Of a stretch of 48,734 nt of DNA, positions 6,666 through 26,794 are shown piece after piece. The notes beneath the pieces are model-generated. The model worked only from the letters and a program-made list of their open reading frames with translations, made no database searches and was not told where the DNA came from. The first letter of the stretch is position 1. The number at the start of each line of letters is the position of its first letter. The stretch is taken from NCBI GenBank assembly GCA_026707335.1, contig JAPOXB010000075.1:1-48734 (forward strand), written 5' to 3'. A program made the translations under genes and the position numbers. The stretch comes from Chloroflexota bacterium (GTDB lineage Bacteria > Chloroflexota > Dehalococcoidia > Bin125).

Positions 6666-6735
6666 AACACCCTCGTTGCGTCCCAGGGCCAAGACGTGTG
6701 GACGCGCATCCGATACTTCGCCCGGGAACCTCAAG

Positions 6736-9414: not shown

Positions 9415-12400
9415 GTGCGTAAGCGCTCAGCGGTTCTGCTTGCGACTCTGCTGGTGGTGAGCCTGGCGGTGGTCACGGGTCGGCCGTCCGCGGCCGCGCC
9501 CCCCACCTGCGAGAACGGCGTCGTCGTCCCCGACCCCGAGGCCAACCGCGGCCTCGTCCTCGACTGCGCGAATCTGCTGGCGGCGAAGACGCAGTTCACC
9601 GCGCCCCACCCGCTGAACTGGGGAGCCGAGACGCCCATCGCCCGGTGGGACGGTGTCACCCTCGGTGGCTACCCGCCACGCGTGCGGGAACTGTACCTGC
9701 GCGCGCGCGGGTTCACGGGCCGGGTCCCGCCGCACTTGGCCAACGTCCGCGAGTTGCGCGAGCTCTCGCTGCCGGACAACCAACTCACGGGTTCCATCCC
9801 ACCCGAGTTGGGATCGCTGCGGCATCTGGAACGACTGTGGCTCCACGGCAACCAGTTGACCGGCGGCATCCCGCCGGAATTGAGTTCCTTGCGCGCCCTG
9901 GAGTATCTGTGGCTCCAGGACAACCACCTCACGGGCGGCATCCCGGCCGAGCTTGGAACCCTCTCGAACCTGACGGATCTGCTGCTGCGCGGCAATCAGT
10001 TGACGGGCCCGATCCCGGCCGAGCTGGGGTCGTTGCGCGATCTGAGGGCCCTCTGGCTGCAGGACAACCAGTTCAGCGGATCGATCCCGCCCGCTCTCGG
10101 ATCCCTGCGCAGCCTGCGCACGCTCCTGCTGAGCGACAATGAACTCACGGGCGCGATCCCCGCACAACTGACGTCCCTCATCAGCCTCGAATACCTGCGC
10201 TTGAGCGGTAACGCCGGCCTGACCGGCTGCATCCCCCAGCCGCTACGGGAGGTGCGCGAGCACGACCTCGCCGAGATCGGCCTCCCCAACTGCAGACCCC
10301 TGCCTCCGCCCTGCGAGGACGGCATCACCGTCCCCAACCCCGCCGGCAACCCTGGCTTGGTCTCCGACTGCGCCGCCCTACTTGCCGCGCGGGACCAACT
10401 GAGGGGCTACGCCGCCCTCAACTGGGTTCGCAACATCCCCATCACCATATGGGACGGCGTCACCATCGAGGGCGACCCGCCACGCGTGCGTGGACTCGAA
10501 CTGGGGCGGCGCGGCTTGACGGGTGCGATCCCGGCGCAACTCGGTGACCTCACCGCCCTGGAGGAGGTGCGCCTCGATCGCAACCGGTTGCACGGCCCGA
10601 TCCCACCGGAACTGGGAGGCCTCCACAACCTCCGATTCCTCGACCTGGCGTACAACCATCTGCGCGGCTCGGTTCCGCCGGAGCTGGCATCACTTGGCAA
10701 GCTGGGATCCCTAGCCTTGGACGGCAATGGACTGACCGGCCCGATCCCCCCGGAGATCAGCGCGCTGTCCTCGCTCTGGTACCTCGGTCTCGGTGACAAC
10801 CGGCTCACCGGGCCGATCCCGGCGGAGCTGGCGGCCTTGCTCAATCTCCAGGAGTTGCGTCTGGACACGAACCAACTGACCGGGCCGATCCCTGCAGCCC
10901 TGGGATCGCTGCCTCACCTGTGGCGACTACGTCTGAACGGCAACCGGCTGACCGGCGCGATTCCAGCGGAGATCGCGTCGCTGGGCGCCCTGCGGTACCT
11001 GCACCTGCACGAGAACCGGCTCAGCGGCGCGATCCCGGCGGCGCTCGGATCGCTGCCCGCCCTGGAAACCCTGTCCTTGAACGGCAACCAACTGACGGGG
11101 CCGATCCCGCCGGCGCTGGGATCGCTGGGCGCCTTGCAGTTCCTGGGCCTGGGCGACAACCGGCTGACCGGCGCCATCCCGCCCGCGCTGGGCGGCCTGG
11201 CGTGGTTGCGGATTCTGACGCTGAGCGGTAACCAGCTCAGCGGCCCGATTCCCGACGCGCTGGGGAGCCTGGGGACATTGAGCTACCTGCACCTGCACGA
11301 CAACCAACTCACCGGGCGGATCCCCACGGCGCTGGCGGGCCTGATCACCCTGCGGCGTCTGTCACTGAGCGAGAACCAGCTGAGCGGAGCGATCCCGGGC
11401 GGGCTCGGGGTGCTGCGCGAGTTGGAGGAACTGTCGCTGCACACCAACCAGTTGAGCGGCCCGATCCCCACTTCGCTGGCCTGGCTCTCGGCGCTGCGTT
11501 CCCTGCGGCTGAGTGGCAACCCCGGTCTCACCGGCTGCGTCCCCCCGTCCCTCCGCGACATCGGGACGAACGACCTTGCCTTGCCCGACTGCCCGCCGTC
11601 GGCGCCCTCTCCGTGCGAGAACGGCACGGCCGTCGCCAACCCCGAGGACAACCCCGCCCTCGTCCTCGACTGCGCCATTCTGCTCGGCCTCAGGGATACG
11701 CTCACCGGCGACGCCACGCTCAACTGGGACCCCGCCACCCCCATGTGGCGCTGGGACGGCGTCGTGAGGGGTGGGTGGCCGCGGCGCGTGTGGGCGCTCA
11801 ATTTGTCGCGGCGTAGCCTCTCGGGCCGTATCCCGCTGGAACTGGGGAGACTGGCGGGACTGCATAGCCTACGGCTGGACGACAACCAGCTCAGCGGGCC
11901 CATCCCGGCGACGCTTGGAGCACTGCGCAATCTGACAAACCTGTCGCTGAGCAGGAACCAGTTGACAGGGCCCATCCCAGCGGCGCTCGCCTCACTGCGC
12001 GACCTGGGGGATCTGGGTCTGCGGGGCAACCGGCTCAACGGCCCCATCCCGCCATGGCTGGGGTCCATGAGCACGCTCTGGCGCCTGGAACTGAGCGAAA
12101 ACCATCTCACGGGCCCGATCCCCGCCGCTCTGGGGGCCTTGGCCGACCTGAAGCATCTGGACCTGCGCGACAACCAACTGAGCGGTCCCATCCCGCGGGA
12201 GGTCCGACTGCTGGACCGCACCGAGAAGCTGTATCTGGGCGGCAACCCCGGGCTGACGGGGTGCCTCCCGTCCGTCCTGCGGGCCGTAGCGAACAACGAC
12301 TTGGCCGGACTCTCGCTACCCGACTGCCCGCCGCCGCCCGCCCCCGCGCAAGCGTGCGTGAACGGAGCCGCGGTCGCCCAGGCCGCCGACAACCCCGGCC

Positions 12401-13290
12401 TCGTCTCCGACTGCGCGATCCTGCTCACGGCGCTGTATGTGCTACGCGGCGACGCGCTCCTCAACTGGGATCCGGCGACGCCGATCACCGAGTGGGACGG
12501 CGTCAGCGTCAATGGCGAGCCGCCGCGCGTCACGCAGTTGGAACTCTCAGGGCGCCCGCTCACGGGGTCGATCCCCCCGCAGTTGGGCGGGCTGACGGCA
12601 CTCCGCGAGTTGCATCTCGCGCACACCCGCCTGAGCGGCGCCATCCCCGAGCAACTCGGTGACTTGGCGACCCTGGGCTCGCTGCGGCTGGCTGGCAATC
12701 AACTGACCGGGGCCATCCCGCCGGAACTCGGAGCCCTGTCAAATCTGCGGTCCCTGACTCTGAGTCACAACCAACTCAGCGGCCCGATCCCGCCGGAGCT
12801 TCGCGGGCTCAGCGCCCTACGCACCCTGTCGCTACACTATAACCAACTCAGCGGGCCGATACCGGCGGCGCTGGGCCAACTGGGCGACCTGGACTACGTC
12901 TCGTTGAACAACAACCAACTCACGGGCTCAATCCCCGCCGCCCTGGGGGCCTTGGCCGAACTGAGGCACCTGAGCCTGCGCATCAACCAACTGAGCGGTC
13001 CCATCCCGCCCGCGTGGGGAGCGCTGGGGGCTCTGCGGTACCTCTACCTCGACCACAACCAGCTCAGCGGTCCGATTCCAACTGAGTTGGGCTCGCTGCG
13101 CCACCTGAACACCCTATGGCTTCACAACAACCACCTCAGTGGCTCGATCCCAGCGGCGTTATCGGAGCTGGGAGACTTGGTGTATCTCTATCTGAGTGGC
13201 AATCCGATCACCGGCTGCGTGCCCGTGGCGGTCCGTGATGTGAAGTACAACGACCTCGACCAACTCTCCCTGCCCGACTGCCCGCCCTGA
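9415..13290 (+). CDS. Secreted multi-module plant-type LRR protein, 1291 aa, 4 capped modules (7/14/6/9 canonical 24-aa repeats by hand count)
   Basis: GTG start. The signal peptide is MRKRSAVLLATLLVVSLAVVTGRPSAAA. Modules start at the cap cysteines at nt 9508, 10312, 11614 and 12355. The repeat consensus is LxxLxxLxLxxNxL(T/S)GxIPxxLGx. Each module ends GNPGLTGC.P..LR....DL..L.LPDCPP. Confidence 0.9.
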   Translation: MRKRSAVLLATLLVVSLAVVTGRPSAAAPPTCENGVVVPDPEANRGLVLDCANLLAAKTQFTAPHPLNWGAETPIARWDGVTLGGYPPRVRELYLRARGFTGRVPPHLANVRELRELSLPDNQLTGSIPPELGSLRHLERLWLHGNQLTGGIPPELSSLRALEYLWLQDNHLTGGIPAELGTLSNLTDLLLRGNQLTGPIPAELGSLRDLRALWLQDNQFSGSIPPALGSLRSLRTLLLSDNELTGAIPAQLTSLISLEYLRLSGNAGLTGCIPQPLREVREHDLAEIGLPNCRPLPPPCEDGITVPNPAGNPGLVSDCAALLAARDQLRGYAALNWVRNIPITIWDGVTIEGDPPRVRGLELGRRGLTGAIPAQLGDLTALEEVRLDRNRLHGPIPPELGGLHNLRFLDLAYNHLRGSVPPELASLGKLGSLALDGNGLTGPIPPEISALSSLWYLGLGDNRLTGPIPAELAALLNLQELRLDTNQLTGPIPAALGSLPHLWRLRLNGNRLTGAIPAEIASLGALRYLHLHENRLSGAIPAALGSLPALETLSLNGNQLTGPIPPALGSLGALQFLGLGDNRLTGAIPPALGGLAWLRILTLSGNQLSGPIPDALGSLGTLSYLHLHDNQLTGRIPTALAGLITLRRLSLSENQLSGAIPGGLGVLRELEELSLHTNQLSGPIPTSLAWLSALRSLRLSGNPGLTGCVPPSLRDIGTNDLALPDCPPSAPSPCENGTAVANPEDNPALVLDCAILLGLRDTLTGDATLNWDPATPMWRWDGVVRGGWPRRVWALNLSRRSLSGRIPLELGRLAGLHSLRLDDNQLSGPIPATLGALRNLTNLSLSRNQLTGPIPAALASLRDLGDLGLRGNRLNGPIPPWLGSMSTLWRLELSENHLTGPIPAALGALADLKHLDLRDNQLSGPIPREVRLLDRTEKLYLGGNPGLTGCLPSVLRAVANNDLAGLSLPDCPPPPAPAQACVNGAAVAQAADNPGLVSDCAILLTALYVLRGDALLNWDPATPITEWDGVSVNGEPPRVTQLELSGRPLTGSIPPQLGGLTALRELHLAHTRLSGAIPEQLGDLATLGSLRLAGNQLTGAIPPELGALSNLRSLTLSHNQLSGPIPPELRGLSALRTLSLHYNQLSGPIPAALGQLGDLDYVSLNNNQLTGSIPAALGALAELRHLSLRINQLSGPIPPAWGALGALRYLYLDHNQLSGPIPTELGSLRHLNTLWLHNNHLSGSIPAALSELGDLVYLYLSGNPITGCVPVAVRDVKYNDLDQLSLPDCPP

Positions 13291-13340
13291 CCCGATCCCC
13301 TACCCTCCCCGCGCCCGACCCGGACGGCGGGAGGTGATCC

Positions 13341-15965
13341 GTGCGCACGCGCCCCGTCGCCGCTGGCCTCGCCGCGTTGCTGCTGCTCGCCGGGCTCGCC
13401 GCCGCGCCCGGCCCTGTCCGGGCCGCGCCCCCCACCTGCGAGAACGGCATCGTCGTCCCCGACCCCGAAGCCAACCGCGGCCTCGTCCTCGACTGCGCGA
13501 ACCTGCTCGCCGCCAAGACCCTGTTCGACGCCCCCACGCCGCTGAACTGGGGCGGCGAGACGCCGATCGCGGAGTGGGACGGCGTCACCGTCGGCGGGGA
13601 GCCGCCGCGCGTCGAGGAGTTGGACCTGTCGTCACGCGGCCTCACGGGCCGCATCGCGCCGCAACTGGGCCGTCTGACGGCGCTGCGCGAGTTGACGCTT
13701 CCCGACAACCGCCTCGCGGGGCCGATCCCGGATTCGCTGGGCGACCTGCGCGACCTGGAGTCGCTGTCGCTGCACGGCAACGCACTCGATGGCCCGCTTC
13801 CTCCAGGGCTGGGGCTGCTGGCCGCGCTGCGCTTCCTGGAGCTGCACGACAACCGGCTGACCGGCGCCATCCCCGAGCGATTCGGGAACCTGCGGGGCCT
13901 CGTCGTCCTCTCCCTGTCCGACAACCAACTGACGGGGCTGATCCCGCCGGCGCTGGGATCGCTGTCGACCCTGGAATCGCTGCGGCTCGACGGGAACCAG
14001 CTGACCTGGGTGATCCCCGCCGAGATGGGCGCCCTGCGCAACCTTCGCCATCTACTCCTGACGGACAACGACTTGGAGGGGCACATCCCGTCCGCGCTCG
14101 GGTTCCTGCGCGACTTGGAGTCGCTGTCGCTGGGCGGCAATCGGCTGAGCGGCGTCATCCCGCCGTGGCTGACCGACCTGTCCGCCCTGCGCTTGCTCGA
14201 TCTGGCCGGCAACGAATTCAAGGGGCCGATCCCGCCCGGGCTCGCGACGCTGGCCGGCCTCGACACCCTGCTGCTGGCCGACAACCGGCTGACCGGGCCG
14301 ATCCCGCCGGCGCTGGCCGAGATGCCCGCCCTGGCGCGGCTGTCGTTGGCCGGCAACCCCGGCCTCGACGGCTGCATTCCCCTGCCGTTGCACGACCTGC
14401 CCGACAACGACCTGAGCGACGTCCCTCTGCCCGACTGCCCGCCTCCCCATCCCTGCGAGACCGACGGCGCCGTGTTCAACGCCGCCGCCAGGCCCGGTCT
14501 CGTCTTCGACTGCAAGATCCTGCTCGGTCTCAAGGACACGCTCGCTGGGGAGGGTACGCTCAACTGGGACGCCGCGACCCCCATGCTGCTCTGGGACGGC
14601 ATCGTGATCCATGGGACGCCGCGGCGCGTCTGGGGAATCGACCTCACGTCGCGCGGGCTCACGGGGCGCATTCCGCCGGACCTCGCCGGCCTGACCGATC
14701 TGCGCGCGCTTTGGCTCGGGGGCAACCGGCTGACGGGCGGTATCCCGCCCGCGCTCGCGCTCTTGCCGCATCTGTCGAGCCTGCGGCTGCAGCGCAACCA
14801 GTTGGCCGGTCCCATCCCCCGCGAACTCGGCGCCCTGCCCCACCTGCAACTGCTCACGCTGTCCGACAACCGGCTGAGCGGTCACATCCCGCCGCAGTTG
14901 AGCGATCTGCCCGGCCTGATCTACCTCTCCCTCAACGGCAACCAACTCAGCGGCGAGATCCCGTCCGAGTTGGCGTCGCTGCCCAGCATCGGCTACCTCT
15001 GGCTGTACGGGAACCGGCTCAGCGGCTCGATCCCGGCGGCGCTCGGGTCGGTGGCGCAGCTCGTGCACCTCGACCTGCACGACAACCAGTTGAGCGGGGC
15101 CATCCCGGCGGAACTCGGCGACTTGGCTGCGCTCGGCTCGCTGCGGCTGCACGGCAATCAACTGAGCGGGCCCATCCCAGCGGAACTCGGGGCGCTGGCC
15201 AATCTGTGGGAGTTGTGGCTGGACGACAACCAACTCAGCGGTCCGATCCCGGCCGAGTTGGCCGCCCTGTCGCGGCTCTGGTTCCTGCGGCTGCAGGGCA
15301 ATCAACTGAGCGGCCCCATCCCGCCGGAACTCGGCTCGCTGCCCGTCCTGCGGCTGCTGCATCTGGGCGACAACGACCTGAGCGGCCCCATCCCGGCGGC
15401 GCTGGCATCCCTGCCCGGCCTGACGAACCTCCGCCTCAACGACAACAACCTCAGCGGCCCGATCCCGATCGAACTGGCGTCGATGCCCAGCCTGGGAGCC
15501 CTGCAGTTGTCCGGCAACCAGCTCAGCGGCCCCATCCCGGTCGAGTTGGCGTCGCTGTCGCAGCTGCGGGAACTGCGGCTGAGCGACAACCAGTTGAGCG
15601 GCCCCATCCCGCCGGCGCTCGCCGCGCTGGGCGGCATGCAGTACCTCTTCCTCGACGGCAACCAACTGACGGGCCCCATCCCGTGGTCGCTCGGCCTGCT
15701 GCGCCGCATGCAGGCCATCTCCCTCGCCGGCAACCAACTGAGCGGCCCCATCCCGCCGGAATTGGGCGCCCTCCGCTTCGTCTGGTTCGTGTCGCTCAGC
15801 GACAACCAACTCAGCGGCCCGATTCCGATCGAACTCGCGGATCTCCCCCGTTTGGCGGTCCTTTATCTGGGCGGCAACCAACTCAGCGGCTGCGTCCCCC
15901 CGGCGCTGCGGGACGTCCAGACGAACGACCTCGCGGACGTCGCCCTGCCCGACTGCCCGCCCTGA
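13341..15965 (+). CDS. Secreted multi-module plant-type LRR protein, 874 aa, 2 modules (10/17 repeats)
   Basis: GAGGTGATCC precedes the GTG start. The signal peptide ends VRA. The architecture matches 9415-13290. The protein ends LPDCPP followed by the stop codon. Confidence 0.9.
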   Translation: MRTRPVAAGLAALLLLAGLAAAPGPVRAAPPTCENGIVVPDPEANRGLVLDCANLLAAKTLFDAPTPLNWGGETPIAEWDGVTVGGEPPRVEELDLSSRGLTGRIAPQLGRLTALRELTLPDNRLAGPIPDSLGDLRDLESLSLHGNALDGPLPPGLGLLAALRFLELHDNRLTGAIPERFGNLRGLVVLSLSDNQLTGLIPPALGSLSTLESLRLDGNQLTWVIPAEMGALRNLRHLLLTDNDLEGHIPSALGFLRDLESLSLGGNRLSGVIPPWLTDLSALRLLDLAGNEFKGPIPPGLATLAGLDTLLLADNRLTGPIPPALAEMPALARLSLAGNPGLDGCIPLPLHDLPDNDLSDVPLPDCPPPHPCETDGAVFNAAARPGLVFDCKILLGLKDTLAGEGTLNWDAATPMLLWDGIVIHGTPRRVWGIDLTSRGLTGRIPPDLAGLTDLRALWLGGNRLTGGIPPALALLPHLSSLRLQRNQLAGPIPRELGALPHLQLLTLSDNRLSGHIPPQLSDLPGLIYLSLNGNQLSGEIPSELASLPSIGYLWLYGNRLSGSIPAALGSVAQLVHLDLHDNQLSGAIPAELGDLAALGSLRLHGNQLSGPIPAELGALANLWELWLDDNQLSGPIPAELAALSRLWFLRLQGNQLSGPIPPELGSLPVLRLLHLGDNDLSGPIPAALASLPGLTNLRLNDNNLSGPIPIELASMPSLGALQLSGNQLSGPIPVELASLSQLRELRLSDNQLSGPIPPALAALGGMQYLFLDGNQLTGPIPWSLGLLRRMQAISLAGNQLSGPIPPELGALRFVWFVSLSDNQLSGPIPIELADLPRLAVLYLGGNQLSGCVPPALRDVQTNDLADVALPDCPP

Positions 15966-15968
15966 CCG

Positions 15969-16156
15969 GTGCGCCATCCCCTACCCTGGCACGCGGCGGA
16001 GGCCACGCGTCGGGGGCGGAGGTGATCCGTGCGCACGCGCCGCGCGATCCTCCTCGCGGGCCTGCTGGCGGCCGTCCTGGCGGCGGTCGACGGACGTCCC
16101 GCCCGGGCGGAGCCCCCCACCTGCGAGAACGGCGTCGTCGTCCCCGACCCCGAGGT
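15969..16156 (+). repeat. 188-bp perfect direct repeat, copy A (intergenic leader plus the first 128 nt of the LRR gene)
   Basis: Identical base for base to 18573-18760 (offset 2604 bp). The flanks continue at high identity with isolated mismatches (15968, 16157). Confidence 0.9.
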
Positions 16157-18569
16157 TAACCGGGGCCTCGTCATCGACTGCGCGAACCTGCTCGCCGCGA
16201 AGACGCTGTTCACCGCGCCTCATCCGCTGAATTGGCGCGGCGAGACGCCGATTGCGGAGTGGGACGGCGTCACGCTCCTCGGCGAGCCCCCGCGCGTCGC
16301 CGAACTCAACCTTTCCTCGTATGGCCTATCGGGCCGCATTCCCCCGCAGTTGGGCCGCCTGTCGGCGCTGCGGAGTCTCTGGCTGCAGGACAGCAAGCTG
16401 ACCGGGGCCATCCCACCAGAACTCGGATCCCTACGCAACCTTGAAGTCCTGTCGTTGTGGGGCAACCAACTCAGCGGCGCGATCCCCATCCAACTGGCGG
16501 CCCTACCGGAGTTGGCGCAGTTGCATCTGGGCGGCAACCCTGGCCTGACCGGCTGTGTCCGGCTGGCGCTGTACGATGTGCCCAACAACGACTTCGCGGC
16601 GATCGGGCTACCGGGCTGTGACGGTTCACCGTCGCCCACGGCGACGTTCCCACCAGCGCCCATGCCGTCGTCCTGCGAGAACGGCATCGCCGTCCCCGAC
16701 CCCGTAGACAACCCCGGCCTCGTCTCCGACTGCGTCGCTCTTCTCGCCGCCAAGGCCGCGCTCGCCAGCGCCGCCCCCCTCAACTGGGATCCAGCCATCC
16801 CGGTCGGCGAATGGGACGGGATCCTCACCAGCGGCACCCCGCCGCGCGTGACCCTGCTGGCGCTGCTGGATCACGGTCTGCTGGGTCACATCCCAGCTCA
16901 ACTGGGCAGCCTCTCCGCACTTGAAGCTCTATGGCTCAGTGAGAACCGACTCACGGGCGTGATCCCGGCGGCGCTCGGATTGCTGGGAAACCTGGAGTCG
17001 CTGTGGCTGCACAAGAATCAGTTGACGGGCCCGATCCCGCCGCAGATCGGATCCTTACGGAGCCTGCAGTACCTGCGGTTGGACGAGAACCACCTCGGCG
17101 GTGGGATCCCCGCGGCCCTCGGATCACTGCGCGGCCTGCGGGATCTCTCACTGGCCGGCAACCAACTGACCGGCCCCATCCCCCCGGAGTTGGCCGCCCT
17201 CACGAACCTGGAGACGTTGCGGCTCAACGCCAACCACCTGCGTGGGCCCATCCCCAGTCCCCTGACATCCCTCACTTCCCTGCACACGCTGCGCTTAGAT
17301 GACAACGACATCACCGGTCCCATCCCGGCGGGATTGGGATCGCTGACCCGCCTGAGGCATCTATCACTGAACAACAACCAGATCGCAGGCCCAATCCCGG
17401 AGCAGTTGGGCGCGCTGCCCGACCTTCGTCACCTGTGGCTGCATGACAACCAACTCAGCGGCGCCATCCCCGCCGCGCTGGCGTCGCTGGGCGCCTTGAA
17501 TTCCGTGCAACTCAGCGGTAACCCGGGCCTGACCGGCTGCATCCCCGCCGCCCTGTCGGGCGTGCCGACGACCGATCTCATCGAGCTCGGCCTGCCCCGC
17601 TGCGACGGGGAGCCGCTGCTCACGTGTGAGAGCGGGGCCGCCGTCGCCGACCCCGCCGTCGCACCCGGCCTCGTCGCCGACTGCGCCATCCTCCTCAACA
17701 TCAAGGCCAGTCTCGCCGGCCGTGGCACGTTGAACTGGAGCGGCGGCGTGTCCATGAGCGACTGGGATGGTGTCACGATCGGCGGCGTCCCCCCGCGCGT
17801 CCACAAGCTGGAGTTGCCGCAGTACCACCTGACGGGTCGCATTCCCCCGGAACTGGGGGAGTTGACGGCACTGCGGGAACTGCGCCTGCATCACAACGCC
17901 TTGGCCGGGTCAATCCCAGCCGAGTTAGCGGCCCTTGGGTCGCTGGATGCGCTGTGGTTGTACGACAACCGCCTGACCGGGGCGATCCCGGCCGAGCTGG
18001 GGTCGCTGGAGAACCTGCGGTCCCTGTGGCTGCACAAGAATCGGCTGACGGGCCAGATCCCCCCGGCGTTGGCGTCCCTGCCCGAGATGGAATCTCTATC
18101 GCTGTTTCAGAACGAACTGACCGGGCCCATCCCCCCGGCGCTTGGCACGCTCCGCAAGCTGCGGCACTTGGCGCTCAGCGTGAACCACCTCAGCGGTCCC
18201 ATCCCAGCCGCGTTGGGGTCGCTGGTCAACCTGGAGGATCTGTCGCTGAGCGGGAACCGGCTCAGCGGTCCCATCCCAGCGGCGCTGGGGGAGTTGCGGA
18301 ATCTGCGGTTCCTGTACCTGAACTGGAACCAACTGAGCGGCCCCATCCCAATGGAACTCGGGGGCCTTGCGGCAGTCTCGCGCATCGGACTGGATCGGAA
18401 CCGGCTGACAGGCTCGATCCCGGCGCAACTGGCCACGCTCACGAACCTCCAGTCCCTCAGGCTGAGCTACAACCAGTTCACCGGTTGCATCCCGTCGGCG
18501 CTTCGCGACGTGCCATTAACCGACCTCGACGACCTCCCCCTGCCCGACTGCCCGCGGGAGCCGCCCTGA
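16029..18569 (+). CDS. Secreted multi-module plant-type LRR protein, 846 aa, 3 modules (3/9/9 repeats)
   Basis: GAGGTGATCC precedes the GTG start. The signal peptide MRTRRAILLAGLLAAVLAAVDGRPARA is identical to that of the next gene. The module caps are the same as in the other paralogs. Confidence 0.9.
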   Translation: MRTRRAILLAGLLAAVLAAVDGRPARAEPPTCENGVVVPDPEVNRGLVIDCANLLAAKTLFTAPHPLNWRGETPIAEWDGVTLLGEPPRVAELNLSSYGLSGRIPPQLGRLSALRSLWLQDSKLTGAIPPELGSLRNLEVLSLWGNQLSGAIPIQLAALPELAQLHLGGNPGLTGCVRLALYDVPNNDFAAIGLPGCDGSPSPTATFPPAPMPSSCENGIAVPDPVDNPGLVSDCVALLAAKAALASAAPLNWDPAIPVGEWDGILTSGTPPRVTLLALLDHGLLGHIPAQLGSLSALEALWLSENRLTGVIPAALGLLGNLESLWLHKNQLTGPIPPQIGSLRSLQYLRLDENHLGGGIPAALGSLRGLRDLSLAGNQLTGPIPPELAALTNLETLRLNANHLRGPIPSPLTSLTSLHTLRLDDNDITGPIPAGLGSLTRLRHLSLNNNQIAGPIPEQLGALPDLRHLWLHDNQLSGAIPAALASLGALNSVQLSGNPGLTGCIPAALSGVPTTDLIELGLPRCDGEPLLTCESGAAVADPAVAPGLVADCAILLNIKASLAGRGTLNWSGGVSMSDWDGVTIGGVPPRVHKLELPQYHLTGRIPPELGELTALRELRLHHNALAGSIPAELAALGSLDALWLYDNRLTGAIPAELGSLENLRSLWLHKNRLTGQIPPALASLPEMESLSLFQNELTGPIPPALGTLRKLRHLALSVNHLSGPIPAALGSLVNLEDLSLSGNRLSGPIPAALGELRNLRFLYLNWNQLSGPIPMELGGLAAVSRIGLDRNRLTGSIPAQLATLTNLQSLRLSYNQFTGCIPSALRDVPLTDLDDLPLPDCPREPP

Positions 18570-18572
18570 CCC

Positions 18573-18760: not shown

Positions 18761-21700
18761 CAACCGGGGTCTCGTCCTCGACTGCGCGAACCTGCTCGCC
18801 GCCAAGACGCAGATCGACCGCCGCCGCGGGATCAACTGGGGCGGTGAAACGCCGATCGGCGAGTGGGACGGCGTCACCGTCGGCGGCGAGCCGTTGCGCG
18901 TCATCGAGGTCGACCTGCGTTCGAGCTTCCTCCTGGGCCGCATCGCACCGCAGTTCGGGCGGCTCTCGGCGCTGCGCGGCCTCTACCTGCAGAACAACAA
19001 GCTGACCGGGCCCATCCCGCCGGAGCTGGGATCGCTGCCCGACCTGGAGTTCCTCTGGCTGTTCCGCAACGATCTCGACGGTCCCATCCCGCCGGAACTC
19101 GGCTCGCTGGGCAGCCTGCGCGAGCTGTGGATCAGCACCAACCAATTGACCGGCTCGATCCCCGACCATCTCGGGAACCTGCGCGCCCTGCGTCTCATGC
19201 GCCTGGAGAACAACGAACTGACCGGGTCGATCCCGCCGTCGCTGGGATCGCTGGCGAACGTCGAGACGCTGCGGCTCGACAAGAACCGGTTGACTTGGAA
19301 GATCCCTCCCGAGTTGGGCGCCCTGTCCAACCTGCGCAACCTGCGCCTGACCGATAACGACCTGGAGGGTCGGATCCCGCCTGCGCTCGGCGCGCTGCAG
19401 AACCTGGAGTCCCTGTCGATGGGGCACAACCGGCTGACCGGCGCCATCCCGCCGGAACTCGGCGATCTGTCGGCTCTGCGCAGTCTGTACTTGCGCCGGA
19501 ACCAACTGAGCGGCCCGATCCCCGAGGCGCTGGGGAACCTGCGCAACCTGCAAACCCTGTGGCTGAACCAGAACCAGTTGACCGGGCCGATCCCAGCCGT
19601 GCTGGGGAGTCTGTCCACTCTGCGGATTCTGGACCTGCAGCGGAACCAACTGAGCGGCCCGATCCCCGCGGAGCTTGGGGCGCTGCGCAACCTGAACGAG
19701 TTGTTGCTGAACAACAACCAACTCAGCGGGCCGTTCCCGCATGAACTCGCCGACCTGCCCTCGCTGGTGCAGTTGTACGTCTCCGCCAACCCCGGCCTGA
19801 CCGGCTGTGTCCCGCGGCGGCTGCTCTACCCCCGCCAAAACGACCTCTGGGCGAGCGGCCTGCCCGTCTGCACGCCGCCGCCGCCGCCCTGCGCGAACGC
19901 CGCGGCCGTGCCCGACCCCGCGTCGAACCGGGGTCTCTACCGCGACTGCAACATCCTCCTCTCGATCAAGGACACGCTCGACGCCCGCGCCCCCCTCGAC
20001 TGGGACGCCGGCACGCCGATCGCCGATTGGGAGGGCGTCACCGTCGGGGGGCCGACGCCGCACGTGATCGGGATCGACCTGTCGTCACGCCGCCTGACGG
20101 GGCAACTCCCGGTGGGCCTGCGCGGGCTGACGCAACTGCGGGAGTTGCGCCTCGACGACAACCGCCTCACCGGCCCCATCCCGCGCGAGTACAGCTTCCT
20201 CTCGCAGTTGCGGACCCTGTCGCTGGGCGGCAACCGGCTGACAGGCGAGATCCCGCCCAGGCTCGGAACCTTGCCGCGCCTAGAGGTTATCTCGCTCGGC
20301 GGCAATTGGCTGGTCGGTCCCATCCCGTCCGAGTTCGGATCCCTGGTCGAGTTGCGGGAGCTGCGGCTGGGCGGCAACCACCTGCGCGGCCCCATCCCCG
20401 CCGAGTTGGGCGCGCTGCCCAACCTGCGCCGTCTCGACGTGCGCGACAACCAACTGGCCGGGCCCATCCCCGGTGCGCTGCGTCTGCTCGACCGGGCCGA
20501 GGCGCTGCACCTGGGCGGCAACCCCGGCCTCACGGGCTGCGTCCCGGCCGCCCTGCGGGCCGTGCCCGACAACGACCTCGACGCCCTGGCGTTGCCCGAC
20601 TGCCCGCCGCCGACCCCGCCCGCGGAACCGTGTGCGAACGGCACGGTGGTCGCCGCGCCGGCCGAGCACGCCGGCCTCGTCGGCGACTGCGCGATCCTGC
20701 TCGCGGCGCTGCACGCGCTGCGCGGCGACGCCAGCCTGAACTGGAGCCCCGCGACGCCGATCACGGAGTGGGACGGCGTCACCCTCGAGGGGGCGCCGCC
20801 GCGCGTCGCGAAGCTGGACGTCTCGCAGCGCCCGCTCACAGGGCACATCCCGCCGGAGTTGGCCGGTCTGACCGAACTCCAAGAGCTGCACCTCGGCGGC
20901 AATCGGCTGACCGGCGCGATCCCGGCCGAGCTGGGCGCGCTGGCCCACCTGGAGATCCTGCGCCTGCACGGCAACCGCCTGACCGGTCCCATCCCGCCCG
21001 TGCTGGGCGCCTTCACGCAGTTGCGCGTGCTGTCGCTGGGGGAGAACCAGTTGGCCGGTCCCATCCCGGTCGAGTTGGGGGCGCTGGTCGCCCTGGAGTC
21101 GCTGACGCTGAGCGGCAACCAACTCACGGGTCCGATCCCATCCTCGCTGGGCGAGTTGCGCGCGCTGACGCTCCTCGCGTTGAGCGACAACCAGTTGAGC
21201 GGCCCGATCCCGGACTCGCTGGGCGGGCTGCCCGACCTGCGGCTGCTGACGCTGCGGGACAACCAGCTGACCGGCGCGATCCCGGCGTCGCTGGCCGAAC
21301 TGCGCAGCCTGACCGACCTCTATCTGACCGGCAACCAGCTCAGCGGCCCCATCCCGGCGGAGCTCGGTCTCCTCGATCGCTTGGAGCGCCTCTCCCTCGA
21401 CGACAACCAACTGACCGGCCCCATCCCCGCCGAGCTGGGAACGTCCCCGCGGCTGCGATCGCTGAGCTTGGCGGGGAACCCCGGCCTGACCGGCTGCATC
21501 CCGCGGGCGCTGCGCGGCATCCGGTCGACCGACCTCGACGACCTCCCCCTCGGCGACTGCCCGGCGCCGCCCCCGCCCCCGCCGCCGACGCCGCCCTGCG
21601 AGGCGGGCGTCGCCGTGGCCCACCCCGCCGACACCCCCGGCCTCGTCGCCGACTGCGCCGCTCTCCTCGCCGCCCGGGACGCGCTCGCTGGCGATGCCGC

Positions 21701-22388
21701 CCTCAACTGGGATCCCGCCGTCCCCATCACCGCCTGGGACGGCGTCACCGTCGGCGACACGCTCGCCCGCGTCTGGCGCCTCGACCTCCAGTCACGCGGG
21801 CTCACGGGCCGCGTCCCGCCGCAACTGGGCGATCTCGCGGCGCTGCGCTTCCTGTCGCTCCACGGCAATCGGCTGAGCGGCCCGATCCCGGTCGAACTGG
21901 CGGCGCTTCGCAGTTTGGAATATGCGGATCTGGGCGGAAACCAACTCGCGGGCCCGATCCCGGCGGCGCTGGGGTCGATGCCCCGGCTGGACGCGCTGCT
22001 GCTGCACGACAACCGGCTGAGCGGCCCGATCCCGGCCGAACTCGGGTCGGCGCGGGCCCTGCGGTTCCTCTGGCTGCACCACAACGGCCTGACGGGCCCG
22101 AGCCCGGTCGAGTTGGGGCTCCTGGGCAGCCTGGAATCCCTGCGGCTGGACGGCAACCGGCTGAGCGGCCCGATCCCGGCCGAGCTGGGCGCCCTGCGCG
22201 CCCTGTCGGAGTTGCGCCTGGCCGACAACCATCTGACCGGCGCCATCCCGGCGTCGCTGGGCGAGTTGCCCCACCTGACCGACCTCTACCTGGCGCACAA
22301 CCCGCTCGGCGGCTGCATCCCCGCGCCGCTGCGCGCGATCGCGGCGACCGACCTCGACCAGATCCCGCTCCCCGACTGCCCACCTTGA
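18633..22388 (+). CDS. Secreted multi-module plant-type LRR protein, 1251 aa, 4 modules (12/6/9/7 repeats)
   Basis: Same leader, SD and GTG start as 16029. It has four cap-to-cap modules joined by Pro-rich linkers (e.g. PDCPAPPPPPPPTPPCEAG). Confidence 0.9.
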   Translation: MRTRRAILLAGLLAAVLAAVDGRPARAEPPTCENGVVVPDPEVNRGLVLDCANLLAAKTQIDRRRGINWGGETPIGEWDGVTVGGEPLRVIEVDLRSSFLLGRIAPQFGRLSALRGLYLQNNKLTGPIPPELGSLPDLEFLWLFRNDLDGPIPPELGSLGSLRELWISTNQLTGSIPDHLGNLRALRLMRLENNELTGSIPPSLGSLANVETLRLDKNRLTWKIPPELGALSNLRNLRLTDNDLEGRIPPALGALQNLESLSMGHNRLTGAIPPELGDLSALRSLYLRRNQLSGPIPEALGNLRNLQTLWLNQNQLTGPIPAVLGSLSTLRILDLQRNQLSGPIPAELGALRNLNELLLNNNQLSGPFPHELADLPSLVQLYVSANPGLTGCVPRRLLYPRQNDLWASGLPVCTPPPPPCANAAAVPDPASNRGLYRDCNILLSIKDTLDARAPLDWDAGTPIADWEGVTVGGPTPHVIGIDLSSRRLTGQLPVGLRGLTQLRELRLDDNRLTGPIPREYSFLSQLRTLSLGGNRLTGEIPPRLGTLPRLEVISLGGNWLVGPIPSEFGSLVELRELRLGGNHLRGPIPAELGALPNLRRLDVRDNQLAGPIPGALRLLDRAEALHLGGNPGLTGCVPAALRAVPDNDLDALALPDCPPPTPPAEPCANGTVVAAPAEHAGLVGDCAILLAALHALRGDASLNWSPATPITEWDGVTLEGAPPRVAKLDVSQRPLTGHIPPELAGLTELQELHLGGNRLTGAIPAELGALAHLEILRLHGNRLTGPIPPVLGAFTQLRVLSLGENQLAGPIPVELGALVALESLTLSGNQLTGPIPSSLGELRALTLLALSDNQLSGPIPDSLGGLPDLRLLTLRDNQLTGAIPASLAELRSLTDLYLTGNQLSGPIPAELGLLDRLERLSLDDNQLTGPIPAELGTSPRLRSLSLAGNPGLTGCIPRALRGIRSTDLDDLPLGDCPAPPPPPPPTPPCEAGVAVAHPADTPGLVADCAALLAARDALAGDAALNWDPAVPITAWDGVTVGDTLARVWRLDLQSRGLTGRVPPQLGDLAALRFLSLHGNRLSGPIPVELAALRSLEYADLGGNQLAGPIPAALGSMPRLDALLLHDNRLSGPIPAELGSARALRFLWLHHNGLTGPSPVELGLLGSLESLRLDGNRLSGPIPAELGALRALSELRLADNHLTGAIPASLGELPHLTDLYLAHNPLGGCIPAPLRAIAATDLDQIPLPDCPP

Positions 22389-22458
22389 CCCGCGCCCACC
22401 GCCGCCGATGGCGTACCCTCCCCCAGGGCAGGGCGACTTGAACGGACCGAGGTGATCC

Positions 22459-23493
22459 GTGCGCACGTGCGCCTTCTCCTTCCTTCTCGCGGCGCTGCTG
22501 CTGGCCGGTCTCGCGGCGGTGGGCGGGCGCCCCGCCCAGGCCGCGCCCGCCACCTGCGAGAACGGCGTCGTCGTCCCCGACCCCGAGGCCAACCGCGGCC
22601 TCGTCATCGACTGCGCCAACCTGCTGGCCGCCAAGACCCAGTTCAGCGCTCGCCGGCCGCTCAACTGGGGCGGCGAGACGCCCATCGCCGAGTGGGACGG
22701 GGTGACCCTGGGCGGCGACCCGCCGCGCGTGTGGAAGGTGCACCTGCGGTCGCGCGGGCTCACGGGCCGCGTCGCGCCGCAGTTCGCCAACCTCCGCGAG
22801 TTGCGCGAACTGGCGCTGCACCACAACCGGCTGACGGGTCCCATCCCGGCCGGACTCGGGTCGCTGCGCCATTTGGAGCGCCTATGGCTCGACGGCAACC
22901 ATCTCAGCGGGTCGATCCCGCCCGCGCTCGGATCGCTGCGCAGCCTGCGCGAACTCTGGCTGCACGACAACCAACTGACCGGCCGCATCCCATCGGAGCT
23001 GGGAGAGCTGCCTTCCCTCGAACGTCTGTGGCTCTACGACAACCAACTGACGGGCCCGATCCCGCCGACGTTGGGATCGCTCTCCGGCCTTCGGTCCCTG
23101 CTGCTGCACGGCAACCAACTATCGGGCCGCATCCCGCCGGAGTTGGGGTCGCTGGACGGCCTGCGACTGCTGTGGCTGAAGGACAACCAACTCACGGGCC
23201 GGATCCCGGCGGCGCTCGGGTCGCTGGGCGAGGTGCTGGACCTGCTGCTCGAGCGCAACCAGCTGACGGGCGCGATTCCCGCCTCGTTCGCCGCCCTGCG
23301 CAGCGTGAAGCGGCTGCACCTCGACGACAACCAGCTCATGGGTCCGATGCCCGCCTGGCTGTCCTCCCTCCCCGATCTGACCTCTCTGCGCCTGAGCGGC
23401 AACCCCGGCCTGACCGGCTGCATCCCCCCGTCGCTGCGGGAGGTCCGCCGGCATGACTTGGCGGAGGCCGGCCTGCCCGACTGCCCGCCCTGA
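22459..23493 (+). CDS. Secreted single-module plant-type LRR protein, 344 aa (9 repeats plus caps; PGIP-like size and layout)
   Basis: GAGGTGATCC precedes the GTG start. The signal peptide ends AQA. It has one N-cap, 9 LRRs and one C-cap ending LPDCPP. Confidence 0.9.
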   Translation: MRTCAFSFLLAALLLAGLAAVGGRPAQAAPATCENGVVVPDPEANRGLVIDCANLLAAKTQFSARRPLNWGGETPIAEWDGVTLGGDPPRVWKVHLRSRGLTGRVAPQFANLRELRELALHHNRLTGPIPAGLGSLRHLERLWLDGNHLSGSIPPALGSLRSLRELWLHDNQLTGRIPSELGELPSLERLWLYDNQLTGPIPPTLGSLSGLRSLLLHGNQLSGRIPPELGSLDGLRLLWLKDNQLTGRIPAALGSLGEVLDLLLERNQLTGAIPASFAALRSVKRLHLDDNQLMGPMPAWLSSLPDLTSLRLSGNPGLTGCIPPSLREVRRHDLAEAGLPDCPP

Positions 23494-23551
23494 CGCGCCA
23501 TCGGCTACGATGTCCTTGGGCAGGGGCGACGTGTACGGACCGAGGTGATCC

Positions 23552-26500
23552 GTGCGCAAGTATGCCCTCCCCTCCTTAATCGCCGCATCCGCCGCGTTGC
23601 TGCTGGTCGTCCTCGCGCCCGGTTCCTCCCAGGCTGCGCCCCCGACGTGCGAGAACGGTGTCGTCGTTCCCGACCCCGAGGCCAACCGCGGCCTCGTCGC
23701 CGACTGCGCGAGTCTGCTCGCCGCGAAGACCCAACTCAAGGCCTCGACGCCGCTCAACTGGGGCGCCGACACGCCCATCGCCGAGTGGGACGGTGTTGGC
23801 CTTGGGGGCGAACCGACGCGCGTCTGGAAGCTGCACTTGCGGTCGCGCGGGCTCACGGGCCGCATCGCCGCGCAACTGACCAACGTTCGGGAGCTGCGCG
23901 AGCTCTCGCTGCCGGACAACCAACTCACGGGCCCGATTCCGCCCGCGCTGGGCTCCTTGCGCCACCTGGAAGGCCTGTGGCTCAATGGCAACCAACTCAG
24001 CGGGCCGATCCCGAGTCAATTGAGGCACTCACCGAAGTTGGAGTACCTCTACCTCGGGAGCAACGGTCGCTTCACGGGCTGCGTCCCGCGGGCGCTCCAC
24101 GACGTCCCCTACAACGACTTCGCGTCGCTTGACCTGCGAGGCTGCGCCAGGGCGCTCCCGCCCCCGTTCCCTTGCGGGAATGGCATCGCCGTCCCCAACC
24201 CAGCCGAGAACCTCGGCTTGGTCTCCGACTGCGTCGCCCTCCTCGCCGCGAAGGATCCGCTGAGGGGGGACGTCGCGCTCAACTGGAGCGCCGCGGTCCC
24301 AATCGCCGCCTGGGATTCCGTCACGATCGACGGCGCGCCGCCCCGCGTGTCGCGCTTGGTTCTGTCGCGCCGTGTCCTGACGGGCGTCATTCCGGCGGAG
24401 TTGGGGAACCTAGCCAATCTGGAAGTCCTGTCGCTGAGCCACAACCAACTGACCGGCCCGATCCCGGGAGCGCTGGGGGCCCTGACCCACCTGCGGGAGC
24501 TTTCCCTCGGCGGGAACCAACTCAGCGGCCCAATCCCGGCCGTGCTCGGTGCTCTGTCCCACCTGGAGGTGCTGTCGTTGGACAGTAACAGCCTGACCGG
24601 CCCGATCCCGGGCGCGCTGGGGGCCCTGACCCACCTGCGGGAGCTTTCCCTCGGCGGGAACCAACTCAGCGGCCCGATCCCGGGCGCACTGGGGGCCCTG
24701 GCCGCTCTTGAGTACCTCTGGTTGCAGGACAACCAACTAAGCGGCTCTATCCCGTCGGCGCTGGGATCACTGAGCAACCTGCGGCAACTCCGCCTGCAGT
24801 ACAACCATCTGACCGGCGCGATCCCCGCTGAACTGGGACTCCTAGGCCGCCTGTGGGAGTTGCGCTTGCACGACAATCAACTGAGCGGTGCGATCCCCCC
24901 GGATTTAGGCGCGCTGCCCAGCCTCGGTTTCCTCTTGCTGTACAACAATCGGCTCAGCGGCGTTATCCCCCCCGCGCTCGGGATGCTCGGCAGGCTGCGG
25001 AACCTGGAACTCTACGGCAACCAGTTGACCGGCCCGATCCCCGAGGCGCTCGGCGGTCTGACCAACCTGCGATCTCTGTGGTTGAGCCGCAATCAACTCA
25101 GCGGCCCGATCCCGGTGGCGCTGGCATCGCTGCGCGGACTGGAGTCCTTGGGGCTAAACGAGAACCAACTCACCGGCCCCATCCCGCCCCAGTTGGGATC
25201 CATGGACCACCTCGTGTATCTCTGGCTACGCGACAACCAACTTACCGGTCCGGTCCCGGCTGAACTGGGCCTGCTCGGCAGTTTGGAATCGCTCCGGTTG
25301 GGCGGCAACCCTGGCCTGACGGGCTGCATCCCACCGCGACTCAGGGATGTCACCGGGCATGACCTCGCTGACGTTCCCCTCCCCGACTGCCACGACTCTC
25401 CGCCTCCCTGCGAGAACGGCATCGCCGTTCCCAACCCCGCCGACCACCCCGGCCTGGTCCACGACTGCGAGGTCTTGCTCGCCGCGGAACTCACTCTCGC
25501 GGACGGCGCCTCCCTGAACTGGTACGCCGGCATACCCATCACCACCTGGGACGGCGTCACTGTCGCTGGCACACCGCCTCGCGTCCAGAGGCTGGAACTG
25601 CCGTCGCATGGACTCGGAGGCCGTATCCCGGCCGTGCTGGGGTCGCTGGCACGATTGCAGACGCTGAACCTTGAGAGCAACGGCCTGACGGGCGTGATCC
25701 CGGCGGAACTCGGCGACCTGCACGACCTGCGGGATCTGAGGCTTAACTCGAACCGACTGGCGGGGGCCATCCCCCCCACCCTGGCGTCCCGCTTCACCCT
25801 GGAGACGGTGTATCTGGCCGACAACCCCTGGCTGACGCCTTGTATCCCGCCGGGACTCCGCCATGTCCCACGCAACGACCTCCATGATCTCGGCCTGCCG
25901 GACTGCATCCCCGGTGTCACGCTCACCTGCCAGACGGGCTCAGCGGTGGCCAACCCCAACGGCAACCCCGGCCTCGTCGGCGACTGCACCATCCTCCTCG
26001 CTGCGAATGCCACCCTCGCGGGCGATGCCACACTCAACTGGGACGTCGGCGTGCCGATTGGGTCGTGGGACGGCATCACTGTCAGGGGTTCTCCGCCGCG
26101 CGTAGTGGAGATCGACCTTCAGTTGCGCGGGCTGACAGGCCTTATCCCACCAGCGCTGGGGGGTCTCTCCGAACTACGGAAACTGTTTCTGCCTAGCAAC
26201 CAGTTGCGTGGCGGGATCCCTGCGGAACTCGGGACGCTCCAGGAACTGCGAATCCTCGCACTGAGCTTCAACGAGCTGAGTGGCAGTATCCCTCGGCAGT
26301 TGGGATCGCTCCACAACCTGGAGGACTTCACGATCGTGGGCAACCAATTGGAGGGCGAGATCCCCGCCGAGTTGGGGTCGTTGCACAAACTGTGGCAACT
26401 TGCGCTATCGAATAATCAGTTGGTTGGCCCCATCCCCCCAGAACTGGGGGCCCTGAGCAGGCTGCGACATCTGGGGTTGGGCGGCAACCAGTTGACCGGC

Positions 26501-26794
26501 CCCATCCCAGCGGCGTTCGGCATGCTGCGCGACCTGGAGACCCTGCTGCTTGAGGGGAATCGACTGACCGGCCCGATCCCCGCGGAATTGGGGGCGCTGC
26601 CTCGGCTCCGGTCCTTGCAGCTGTTCAACAACCGACTGATTGGACCCATCCCCTTCGATCTGCAGGCGCTGCCGGCCCTGGAACTGCTGAACCTTAGCGG
26701 CAACGCTGGCCTCACCGGCTGCATCCCGCCTGCACTTCACGACGTCCGCTACAACGACCTCGCCGACCTCTCCCTCCCCGACTGCCCGCCGTGA
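23552..26794 (+). CDS. Secreted multi-module plant-type LRR protein, 1080 aa, 4 modules (3/13/3/8 repeats)
   Basis: GAGGTGATCC precedes the GTG start. The signal peptide ends SQA. The architecture matches the other paralogs. Confidence 0.9.
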   Translation: MRKYALPSLIAASAALLLVVLAPGSSQAAPPTCENGVVVPDPEANRGLVADCASLLAAKTQLKASTPLNWGADTPIAEWDGVGLGGEPTRVWKLHLRSRGLTGRIAAQLTNVRELRELSLPDNQLTGPIPPALGSLRHLEGLWLNGNQLSGPIPSQLRHSPKLEYLYLGSNGRFTGCVPRALHDVPYNDFASLDLRGCARALPPPFPCGNGIAVPNPAENLGLVSDCVALLAAKDPLRGDVALNWSAAVPIAAWDSVTIDGAPPRVSRLVLSRRVLTGVIPAELGNLANLEVLSLSHNQLTGPIPGALGALTHLRELSLGGNQLSGPIPAVLGALSHLEVLSLDSNSLTGPIPGALGALTHLRELSLGGNQLSGPIPGALGALAALEYLWLQDNQLSGSIPSALGSLSNLRQLRLQYNHLTGAIPAELGLLGRLWELRLHDNQLSGAIPPDLGALPSLGFLLLYNNRLSGVIPPALGMLGRLRNLELYGNQLTGPIPEALGGLTNLRSLWLSRNQLSGPIPVALASLRGLESLGLNENQLTGPIPPQLGSMDHLVYLWLRDNQLTGPVPAELGLLGSLESLRLGGNPGLTGCIPPRLRDVTGHDLADVPLPDCHDSPPPCENGIAVPNPADHPGLVHDCEVLLAAELTLADGASLNWYAGIPITTWDGVTVAGTPPRVQRLELPSHGLGGRIPAVLGSLARLQTLNLESNGLTGVIPAELGDLHDLRDLRLNSNRLAGAIPPTLASRFTLETVYLADNPWLTPCIPPGLRHVPRNDLHDLGLPDCIPGVTLTCQTGSAVANPNGNPGLVGDCTILLAANATLAGDATLNWDVGVPIGSWDGITVRGSPPRVVEIDLQLRGLTGLIPPALGGLSELRKLFLPSNQLRGGIPAELGTLQELRILALSFNELSGSIPRQLGSLHNLEDFTIVGNQLEGEIPAELGSLHKLWQLALSNNQLVGPIPPELGALSRLRHLGLGGNQLTGPIPAAFGMLRDLETLLLEGNRLTGPIPAELGALPRLRSLQLFNNRLIGPIPFDLQALPALELLNLSGNAGLTGCIPPALHDVRYNDLADLSLPDCPP
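24449..24683 (+). repeat. Internal tandem duplication with a 144-bp period (two LRR units) inside the LRR gene
   Basis: 24449-24539 and 24593-24683 differ at only 2 of 91 positions (24469 and 24532). Both encode LTGPIPGALGALTHLRELSLGGNQLSGPIP. Confidence 0.85.

Follow-up and report, generated by a model that had tools for sequence, protein, structure and literature searches.

A variable tandem array of genes for putatively exported, cysteine-capped leucine-rich repeat proteins in a Dehalococcoidia bacterium

Sponge symbionts, SAR202 and Caldilineae among them, are enriched in eukaryote-like proteins with leucine-rich repeats (LRRs), for which a role in host interaction has been proposed (PMC6306507, PMC8163846). 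The route by which eukaryote-like proteins are exported was left open, as few symbiont lineages encode secretion systems (PMC8163846). The animal protein Slit is secreted and carries four consecutive LRR regions, in each of which several LRRs are framed by an LRRNT and an LRRCT (PMC10199209). We analyzed a stretch of 48,734 nucleotides, hereafter the window, from contig JAPOXB010000075.1 of a Chloroflexota bacterium (assembly GCA_026707335.1; Dehalococcoidia). Positions 9415–26794 of the window hold six intact, co-oriented genes on the plus strand, A to F, which encode chains of cysteine-capped, plant-type LRR modules. With a probability of roughly 0.6, we read this array as coding for exported, unanchored and multivalent binding proteins of a probably sponge-dwelling member of the Dehalococcoidia, whose ligands are most likely host matrix or surface components.

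The six genes sum to 5,686 residues and occupy 17,380 of the 48,734 bases of the window (36%). Past the leader, cysteines in A–F occur solely in groups of four, and these groups define 18 modules (4/2/3/4/1/4 from A to F), with a 19th in an outlying gene, G. The two cysteines of the N-terminal cap (N-cap) are spaced by 19 residues in 19 of 19 modules, those of the C-terminal cap (C-cap) by 21 residues, or 18 in one module. The distance from the N-cap pair to the C-cap pair follows 53 + 24n residues to within one residue and yields the repeat number n of each module, giving 154 repeats in A–F and 161 together with the seven of gene G. The original prediction, made by a model from the letters of the window alone, had described six back-to-back genes of about 5,700 residues on the plus strand, filling 36% of the window between housekeeping genes (qor upstream, hemW and aspS downstream), with two-cysteine caps at either end of each module and short proline-rich linkers. 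All of this was borne out, and its hand counts (18 modules with about 154 repeats, and a 19th module with seven repeats in the gene at 29943–31676) match the numbers obtained from the inter-cap distances exactly, module by module.

A single 24-residue register fits all 161 repeats. The consensus of the 142 non-initial repeats, L-x-x-L-x-L-x-x-N-x-L-[TS]-G-x-I-P-x-x-L-G-x-L-x-x, is that of the plant-specific (PS) LRR class, with N9 and G13 each present in 140 of 142 repeats, I15 in 136, P16 in all 142, T or S at position 12 in 117 and G20 in 98. Modules span about 165–500 residues and share at most 68% pairwise identity among all 19. They are joined by linkers, counted from the fourth cysteine to the first of the next module, of only 6–19 residues, mostly rich in proline.

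Each array gene begins with a putative signal peptide that is followed by modules only. Gene A (9415–13290, 1291 residues) carries four of them with 7/14/6/9 repeats (module DNA at 9499–10299, 10303–11598, 11605–12333 and 12346–13287), and gene B (13341–15965, 874 residues) two with 10/17 repeats (13428–14444 and 14445–15962). Three modules with 3/9/9 repeats make up gene C (16029–18569, 846 residues; 16113–16625, 16665–17609 and 17616–18557), and four with 12/6/9/7 repeats gene D (18633–22388, 1251 residues; 18717–19877, 19881–20609, 20622–21566 and 21588–22385). Gene E (22459–23493, 344 residues) encodes one nine-repeat module (22546–23490), while gene F (23552–26794, 1080 residues) encodes four with 3/13/3/8 repeats (23639–24151, 24164–25396, 25400–25912 and 25919–26791). 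The outlying gene G lies on the minus strand (29943–31676, 577 residues) and consists of a long N-terminal leader, one capped module of seven repeats (~30717–31502) and a C-terminal region of about 250 residues (29946–30695) with four further cysteines, for which a Pfam search gave no family match at E values up to 10.

Read from their sequences, the N termini of A–F all show a basic n-region, a hydrophobic stretch and an A-x-A-type site three to four residues before the first cysteine, in line with the AxA-type leader originally predicted for all six proteins. The signal peptides of C (16029–16090) and D (18633–18694) contain the twin-arginine sequence M-R-T-R-R-A-I-L-L, resembling signals for twin-arginine translocation (Tat); the other four are without it. 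The sequences of A–F end right after the last C-cap, with CPP in five of the six array proteins and CPREPP in C, and contain no transmembrane segment, LPXTG motif or lipobox, as had also been claimed. In Pfam, A–F matched LRR families only (LRR_1 at E values from 1e-34 to 1e-117, 9e-117 for gene A), with no SLH or other wall-binding domain and no non-LRR domain; gene G matched LRR_1 at 3e-26. The signal sequences, the paired cysteines and the missing anchor are consistent with the earlier view of extracellular, unanchored proteins, and the N-cap and C-cap are probably disulfide-bonded.

Structural models are consistent with this modular layout. The AlphaFold model of the single module of protein E, built on an alignment of four paralogous nine-repeat modules, reached a predicted local distance difference test (pLDDT) value of 95.8 and a predicted template modelling score (pTM) of 0.92, and shows an N-terminal helix, a regular solenoid of strands and short helices and a small C-terminal cap. 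The best sequence matches in the PDB were the ectodomains of the plant receptors GSO1, MIK2, FLS2 and PEPR1 (E values 1e-113 to 4e-168). Likewise, a Foldseek search with the protein E model returned plant LRR receptor-kinase ectodomains (GSO1, MIK2, FLS2, HSL1, PSKR1) and LRX as top matches, with TM scores of 0.77–0.86 and root-mean-square deviations (rmsd) of 1.8–3.7 Å in the well-aligned matches. For the second and third modules of protein C (631 residues), the two-module model consists of two confident solenoids joined by a linker (residues 316–324) with pLDDT below 50, has a pTM of 0.52, and superimposes poorly on continuous plant solenoids of similar length (TM score 0.35–0.42, rmsd 13–19 Å). 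Because of this weakly predicted linker, the drop in pTM from 0.92 to 0.52 and the poor superposition on continuous solenoids, the models support separate capped solenoids connected by a disordered linker rather than one continuous solenoid. Independent capped solenoids had been predicted for the array, with AlphaFold named as the check.

Four N-caps searched against Pfam gave no match to LRRNT_2 (PF08263) at E values up to 10, and the C-cap matched no Pfam family at the same limit; of the proposed check with Pfam models, the LRR families were thus found and LRRNT_2 was not. A profile of 15 N-caps aligned weakly with the LRRNT of plant TMK3 (E 0.0017) and TMK1 (E 0.067), sharing the pattern D-x-x-x-L-L-x-x-K ... 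W ... W-x-G-V ... R-V-x-x-L-x-L. At the positions of the plant LRRNT cysteines the window N-caps carry other residues, and their own pair, 19 residues apart, sits upstream. The window N-cap is LRRNT_2-like in shape, with a helix and a strand, and is not a detectable member of that family.

If these solenoids bind ligands as plant ectodomains do, the residues exposed on the concave β-sheet would form the contact surface. Among the repeats, entropy is highest at exactly these positions of the β-strand (3, 5, 7 and 8; 3.0–3.7 bits), where W, Y, H, R, D and S are abundant, and the array had been predicted to be a diversified repertoire; the low identity among modules and the concentration of variation on the concave face agree with that description. 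Between orthologues of related genomes the pattern is reversed. In the closest pair, concave positions differ at 2–5% of sites versus 14–28% for the x positions of the convex face, and over ten orthologue pairs, which are phylogenetically non-independent, 23% of concave versus 34% of convex positions differ (Fisher p 3e-8). Diversifying selection on the binding face between orthologues is therefore rejected, since concave sites are better conserved than convex ones. Whole-gene ratios of nonsynonymous to synonymous substitution rates (dN/dS) are 0.18–0.25, versus 0.10–0.20 for the flanking housekeeping genes. Since concave sites vary among repeats and are conserved between orthologues, and since modules are at most 68% identical, the data suggest that each module keeps a specific binding surface of its own under purifying selection. 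We read this as diversity that would arise by gain and loss of modules and not by fast change of existing faces.

Comparison of the locus across genomes, which had been suggested as a check of variation in copy and module number, revealed such variation at all levels. LRR genes occupy the same position between qor and hemW in four related genomes, whose loci we call L003, L004, L005 and L008. The closest of these, L003, in which AspS and Qor are 96% identical to those of the window and the synonymous divergence (dS) of the flanks is ~0.17, has three genes at this position versus six in the window, namely B' (10/16), D (12/6/9/7) and E (9); A, C and F are missing, as is gene G, in whose place aspS and the SBP_bac_5 gene are only ~220 nucleotides apart. 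L008 contains D' (12/6/9) and E. L004 reads 6/15/13/4, 10/17 and 12/6/9, followed by an inverted aspS–hemW segment and then 7/27 and 9, and L005 reads ../15/13/4, 10/17, 10/7, 12/6/9 and 7/24. In both (L004 12885–20312, L005 13186–19289) the aspS–hemW pair is flipped compared with the window and flanked on either side by LRR genes of opposite orientation, one of which has a single module of 27 repeats, or 24 in the other genome.

Genes B, D and E form a conserved core with modules that are 71–91% identical across these genomes. Orthologues of B (74–86% identity) have 10/16 repeats in L003 and 10/17 in L004 and L005, those of E are 84–90% identical in L003, L004 and L008, and the D orthologue of L003 is 89% identical with the same 12/6/9/7 repeats, while L004, L005 and L008 are without its fourth module. 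Nothing in the related loci exceeds 63% identity to genes A, C and F; for A, a database of 5.8 billion proteins gave no close relative either, the best match being ~46% identical. Turnover thus reaches from entire genes through complete modules, such as the fourth of D, down to single repeats (17 versus 16, 27 versus 24), and the qor–hemW locus is a hotspot at these three levels. The genomes of L004 and L005 (OZ244557.1, 2.8 Mb, and its relative CBDHGH01) encode further multi-module LRR proteins of 881–1171 residues at other chromosomal sites (L006, L007, L009, L014); hence the qor–hemW array is only part of each genome's complement.

Within the window, paralogues share 64–81% DNA identity, mostly 65–75%, and tandem units 65–78%, which rules out that the array arose by recent duplication. 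Against this background two tracts of ~250 nucleotides stand out, since they are 98–100% identical to each other. The first (15963–16210, plus strand) runs from the stop codon of B through a 63-nucleotide spacer containing GGAGGTGATCC to about codon 60 of C, while the second (18567–18814, plus strand) begins at the C stop codon, crosses the next spacer and reaches roughly codon 60 of D, so that each copy includes spacer, ribosome-binding site, signal-peptide sequence and first N-cap. Identity this high among paralogues of 64–81% points to ongoing or recent gene conversion at the B–C and C–D junctions. Recent horizontal transfer of the array is not supported: its G+C content of 0.68–0.74 is the same as in the rest of the window, and this uniformity leaves no sign of recent acquisition.

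Several observations bear on the habitat of the organism. Two ENA metagenome contigs, of which one bears the label ROBB21-1_SAMN13943207, encode identical copies of proteins E and F, and a near-identical fragment of F is an NCBI protein from a metagenome-assembled genome (MAG) of a "Chloroflexota bacterium". The label ROBB21-1 looks as if it stands for the Robbins 2021 sponge microbiome project. A profile built from 12 C-cap–linker–N-cap junctions and scanned over one genome per GTDB species found 16 loci, with 12 Dehalococcoidia MAGs, two MAGs labelled only Chloroflexi or Chloroflexota, and one Acidimicrobiales MAG. One of the loci (L015) lies in a Chloroflexi MAG named CO36386bin_13, a name similar to the "COS..." Coscinoderma bins in the supplement of that sponge MAG study. 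The bacterium of the window probably lives in a sponge.

Beyond these genomes the module type is widespread. An exhaustive search of cluster representatives with the junction profile retrieved 4,808 clusters at E values up to 1e-3, 3,031 at 1e-10 and 382 at 1e-30, with single proteins containing up to 16–28 stretches that match it. The exhaustive search was used because the same profile in a protein-database tool returned only short fragments of up to ~206 residues, apparently since this tool prefers matches about as long as the query; a search there with the 344-residue protein E was swamped by generic LRR similarity, returned proteins of up to ~600 residues only, and is useful for close fragments alone. 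The cap-junction profile thereby sets apart about 4,800 clusters that generic LRR models cannot tell from other LRR proteins. With so many clusters matching the cap junction, the multi-module capped architecture is not rare. The original prediction had not recognised it as a described bacterial family, and this stands in so far as the searchable literature yielded no paper describing the capped modules, their concatenation, their signal peptides or the qor–hemW hotspot; on the other side, the general class of eukaryote-like LRR proteins is known and the module is common. Related proteins are fused to Wzy_C, reprolysin-like peptidase, FN3, cadherin-like and PPC domains. Among them are multi-pass membrane proteins of the Wzy_C (O-antigen-ligase-like) type, 2,000–3,250 residues long, with 9–16 short capped LRR modules between hydrophobic N- and C-terminal parts that are probably membrane-spanning. 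Examples are P0203 (L020, 6001–12249), whose gene lies inside a polysaccharide-synthesis cluster, P0202, P0207–P0209, P0213–P0215 and dozens more; the fusion seems to be undescribed and common.

Regarding expression, all six array genes have a GTG start with GGAGGTGATCC upstream and are separated by gaps of 50–70 nucleotides. No promoter-like site was detected. Twelve terminator-like sites were reported, of which ten lie on the minus strand within genes, mostly followed by the tail AGTTGGTTGT, the reverse complement of recurrent D-N-Q-L codons. The other two are plus-strand sites overlapping the beginning of gene E, and none of the twelve is supported as a real terminator. The array genes may therefore be co-transcribed, given the short spacers, the lack of promoter-like sites and the lack of supported terminators. 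The open reading frames (ORFs) 13334–16159 and 22452–23456 were discarded as genes: their translations are rich in arginine and represent wrong-frame read-throughs, and spurious long ORFs arise in the window because its DNA has 70% G+C. Scans for Rfam families and tRNA genes gave no hit in the window.

The neighborhood consists of housekeeping genes, with secF, selB, a HAD hydrolase gene and qor upstream and hemW, aspS, an oligopeptide ABC transporter, tig, clpP, clpX, ftsJ and sdhA downstream. On the minus strand, selB (2676–4691) encodes the selenocysteine-specific elongation factor with GTP_EFTU and SelB winged-helix domains, so that the organism presumably makes selenoproteins. Between selB and the HAD hydrolase gene lies an ORF of 666 residues (4734–6734, minus strand) with a local G+C content of 0.63 versus ~0.70. 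Its match to GHKL/HATPase_c is marginal (E 2e-5, about at the cut-off), a PADLOC search gave no match, and it could be an inserted gene.

How might the array proteins act? We propose that A–F would be exported by the general secretion route with cleavage of the N-terminal signal peptide, and that each protein, once outside, would form one to four independent LRR solenoids of the plant type, probably capped by disulfides and connected by proline-rich linkers. Since they have no anchor, the proteins would then be released from the cell; a single-membrane envelope is found in many Chloroflexota, Dehalococcoides included. If plant LRR receptor ectodomains are a guide, each concave β-sheet face may bind a specific ligand, either an extended peptide or the surface of a protein, and a chain of different modules would make binding to extracellular ligands multivalent or bridging. 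These ligands are most likely components of the host matrix or the host cell surface, in keeping with what has been put forward for eukaryote-like repeat proteins in sponge symbionts. The locus itself would evolve by recombination among conserved cap-coding and 5' sequences, through which genes, modules and repeats may be gained or lost, while the core genes B, D and E would be retained with their binding faces under purifying selection.

Four points weigh against this proposal or soften it. The same module occurs in many contexts, from Wzy_C membrane proteins to peptidases and cadherin or FN3 fusions, and hence appears to be a general binding cassette that by itself does not point to host ligands. 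The twin-arginine leaders of C and D could direct these two proteins to Tat instead of Sec export. The Fisher p value for the conservation of the concave face is optimistic because the ten orthologue pairs are not phylogenetically independent. Lastly, a search for the BioSample in the supplements of the sponge study gave no match, and seawater was sequenced in that study as well.

Some of the evidence can also be arranged differently. Plant polygalacturonase-inhibiting proteins (PGIPs) have a signal peptide, a cysteine-paired N-cap, about ten plant-type repeats and a cysteine-paired C-cap, and are soluble. Protein E, with its signal peptide, paired caps and similar number of repeats, resembles this layout, and conserved concave faces would suit a specific protein target, so that each module might block a secreted hydrolase (a protease, glycosidase or lysozyme) of the host, of competitors or of predators and the array would be a panel of inhibitors. 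We consider this unlikely, for PGIP is not among the top 50 structural matches, which are peptide-binding receptor ectodomains and LRX, the locus shows no link to a hydrolase, and enzyme inhibition does not need strings of up to four different modules. The occurrence of the module in envelope proteins, such as Wzy_C proteins from polysaccharide clusters (L020) and the cadherin and FN3 fusions, would fit adhesins that are held non-covalently on the producer's envelope or S-layer and serve aggregation with kin or other microbes rather than action on a host. The window proteins, however, have no transmembrane helix, lipobox, sortase signal, SLH or other wall-binding domain, which makes this reading rather improbable; were they ordinary adhesins, the array would be hardly more than a well-documented case of a class already known. 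There is also a slim chance that the array is a panel of decoy receptors, in which secreted ectodomains similar to those of plant pattern-recognition receptors would trap specific signalling or antimicrobial peptides of the host, or hide microbial molecular patterns, within the sponge matrix. A string of several modules would then cross-link or sequester more than one ligand at a time, and shuffling at the hotspot would tune the panel to each host.

The fast turnover of genes, modules and repeats between close relatives is typical of conflict loci and could be driven by phages, if secreted modules bound phage receptor-binding proteins or masked surface receptors. This is very unlikely, as the residues of the binding face are under purifying and not diversifying selection between orthologues and the array has no defence genes next to it; the GHKL-like ORF in its vicinity gave no PADLOC match. 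Repeat-rich DNA is, furthermore, prone to mis-assembly, and high G+C content yields many spurious long ORFs, which raises the question of an artefact of assembly or annotation, or of decaying, selfish repeats without function. Yet none of the six frames is broken and their cysteines are perfectly periodic, the E and F genes recur in identical form in two independent assemblies, four other genomes have syntenic arrays, and dN/dS is 0.18–0.25; collapse of repeats during assembly is unlikely because they are only 65–78% identical in DNA. We regard this possibility as effectively refuted already, and return to exported, multivalent binders of host components as the preferred reading.

The locus is of interest in several respects. 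If functional, its ordinary export signals would answer how LRR proteins of sponge symbionts exit the cell, and should the decoy panel prove true, it would be a bacterial counterpart of receptor repertoires that acts outside the cell. The capped modules are small enough to be expressed one at a time, with the conserved concave face marking the expected ligand site, and a single chromosomal hotspot displays differences in genes, modules and repeats between close relatives.

Among bacterial LRR proteins that bind host targets, the array can be compared with internalins, with XopL, XopAC and XopAE of Xanthomonas, and with the Leptospira LIC LRR proteins, which are among the PDB matches. Internalins have 22-residue repeats, an Ig-like inter-repeat region and an LPXTG or GW anchor, while the Xop proteins are type III secreted with an E3-ligase or Fic-type effector domain. 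Scores against the respective NCBIfam models were far under the cut-offs and arose from the repeats only (XopAE 293 versus 600, XopAC 269 versus 450, XopL 126 versus 500, InlA 126.9 versus 1600, InlH 104.5 versus 1050). Together with the 24-residue repeats and the missing anchor this rules out that the window proteins are internalins, and the lack of a non-LRR effector domain in A–F likewise excludes the Xop families. The closest analogue of the beads-on-a-string arrangement of capped units is animal Slit, with Slitrk grouped alongside. Slit belongs to the "typical" animal LRR class, has other cap families and continues with EGF, laminin-G and cystine-knot domains after its LRR regions, and no sequence relationship to the window proteins was found beyond the LRR itself.

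Closest in sequence and structure are the ectodomains of plant LRR receptor kinases and receptor-like proteins, with which soluble plant LRR proteins such as LRX and PGIP can be grouped. They share the 24-residue PS repeat, provide the best PDB matches, are cysteine-capped like the window modules, and are extracellular, as the window proteins would be according to their leaders; the window N-cap has an LRRNT-like helix and W-x-G-V strand, and the C-cap opens with a half repeat of the G-N-P-x-L-x-G-C type. In contrast to the plant receptors, the window proteins are bacterial, have neither transmembrane segment nor kinase, lack the plant C-x-W-x-G-V-x-C pair and a detectable LRRNT_2, and combine several complete capped units in one chain, an arrangement not known from any plant protein. 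With the eukaryote-like LRR proteins of sponge symbionts the window proteins have in common their LRR domains, and their lineage and probable habitat would fit. That class is defined by Pfam LRR counts only, and the window proteins would add to it capped modules and putative N-terminal export signals. The locus is real and fast-changing, and probably represents, without being unique in this, the eukaryote-like repeat proteins already known from sponge symbionts.

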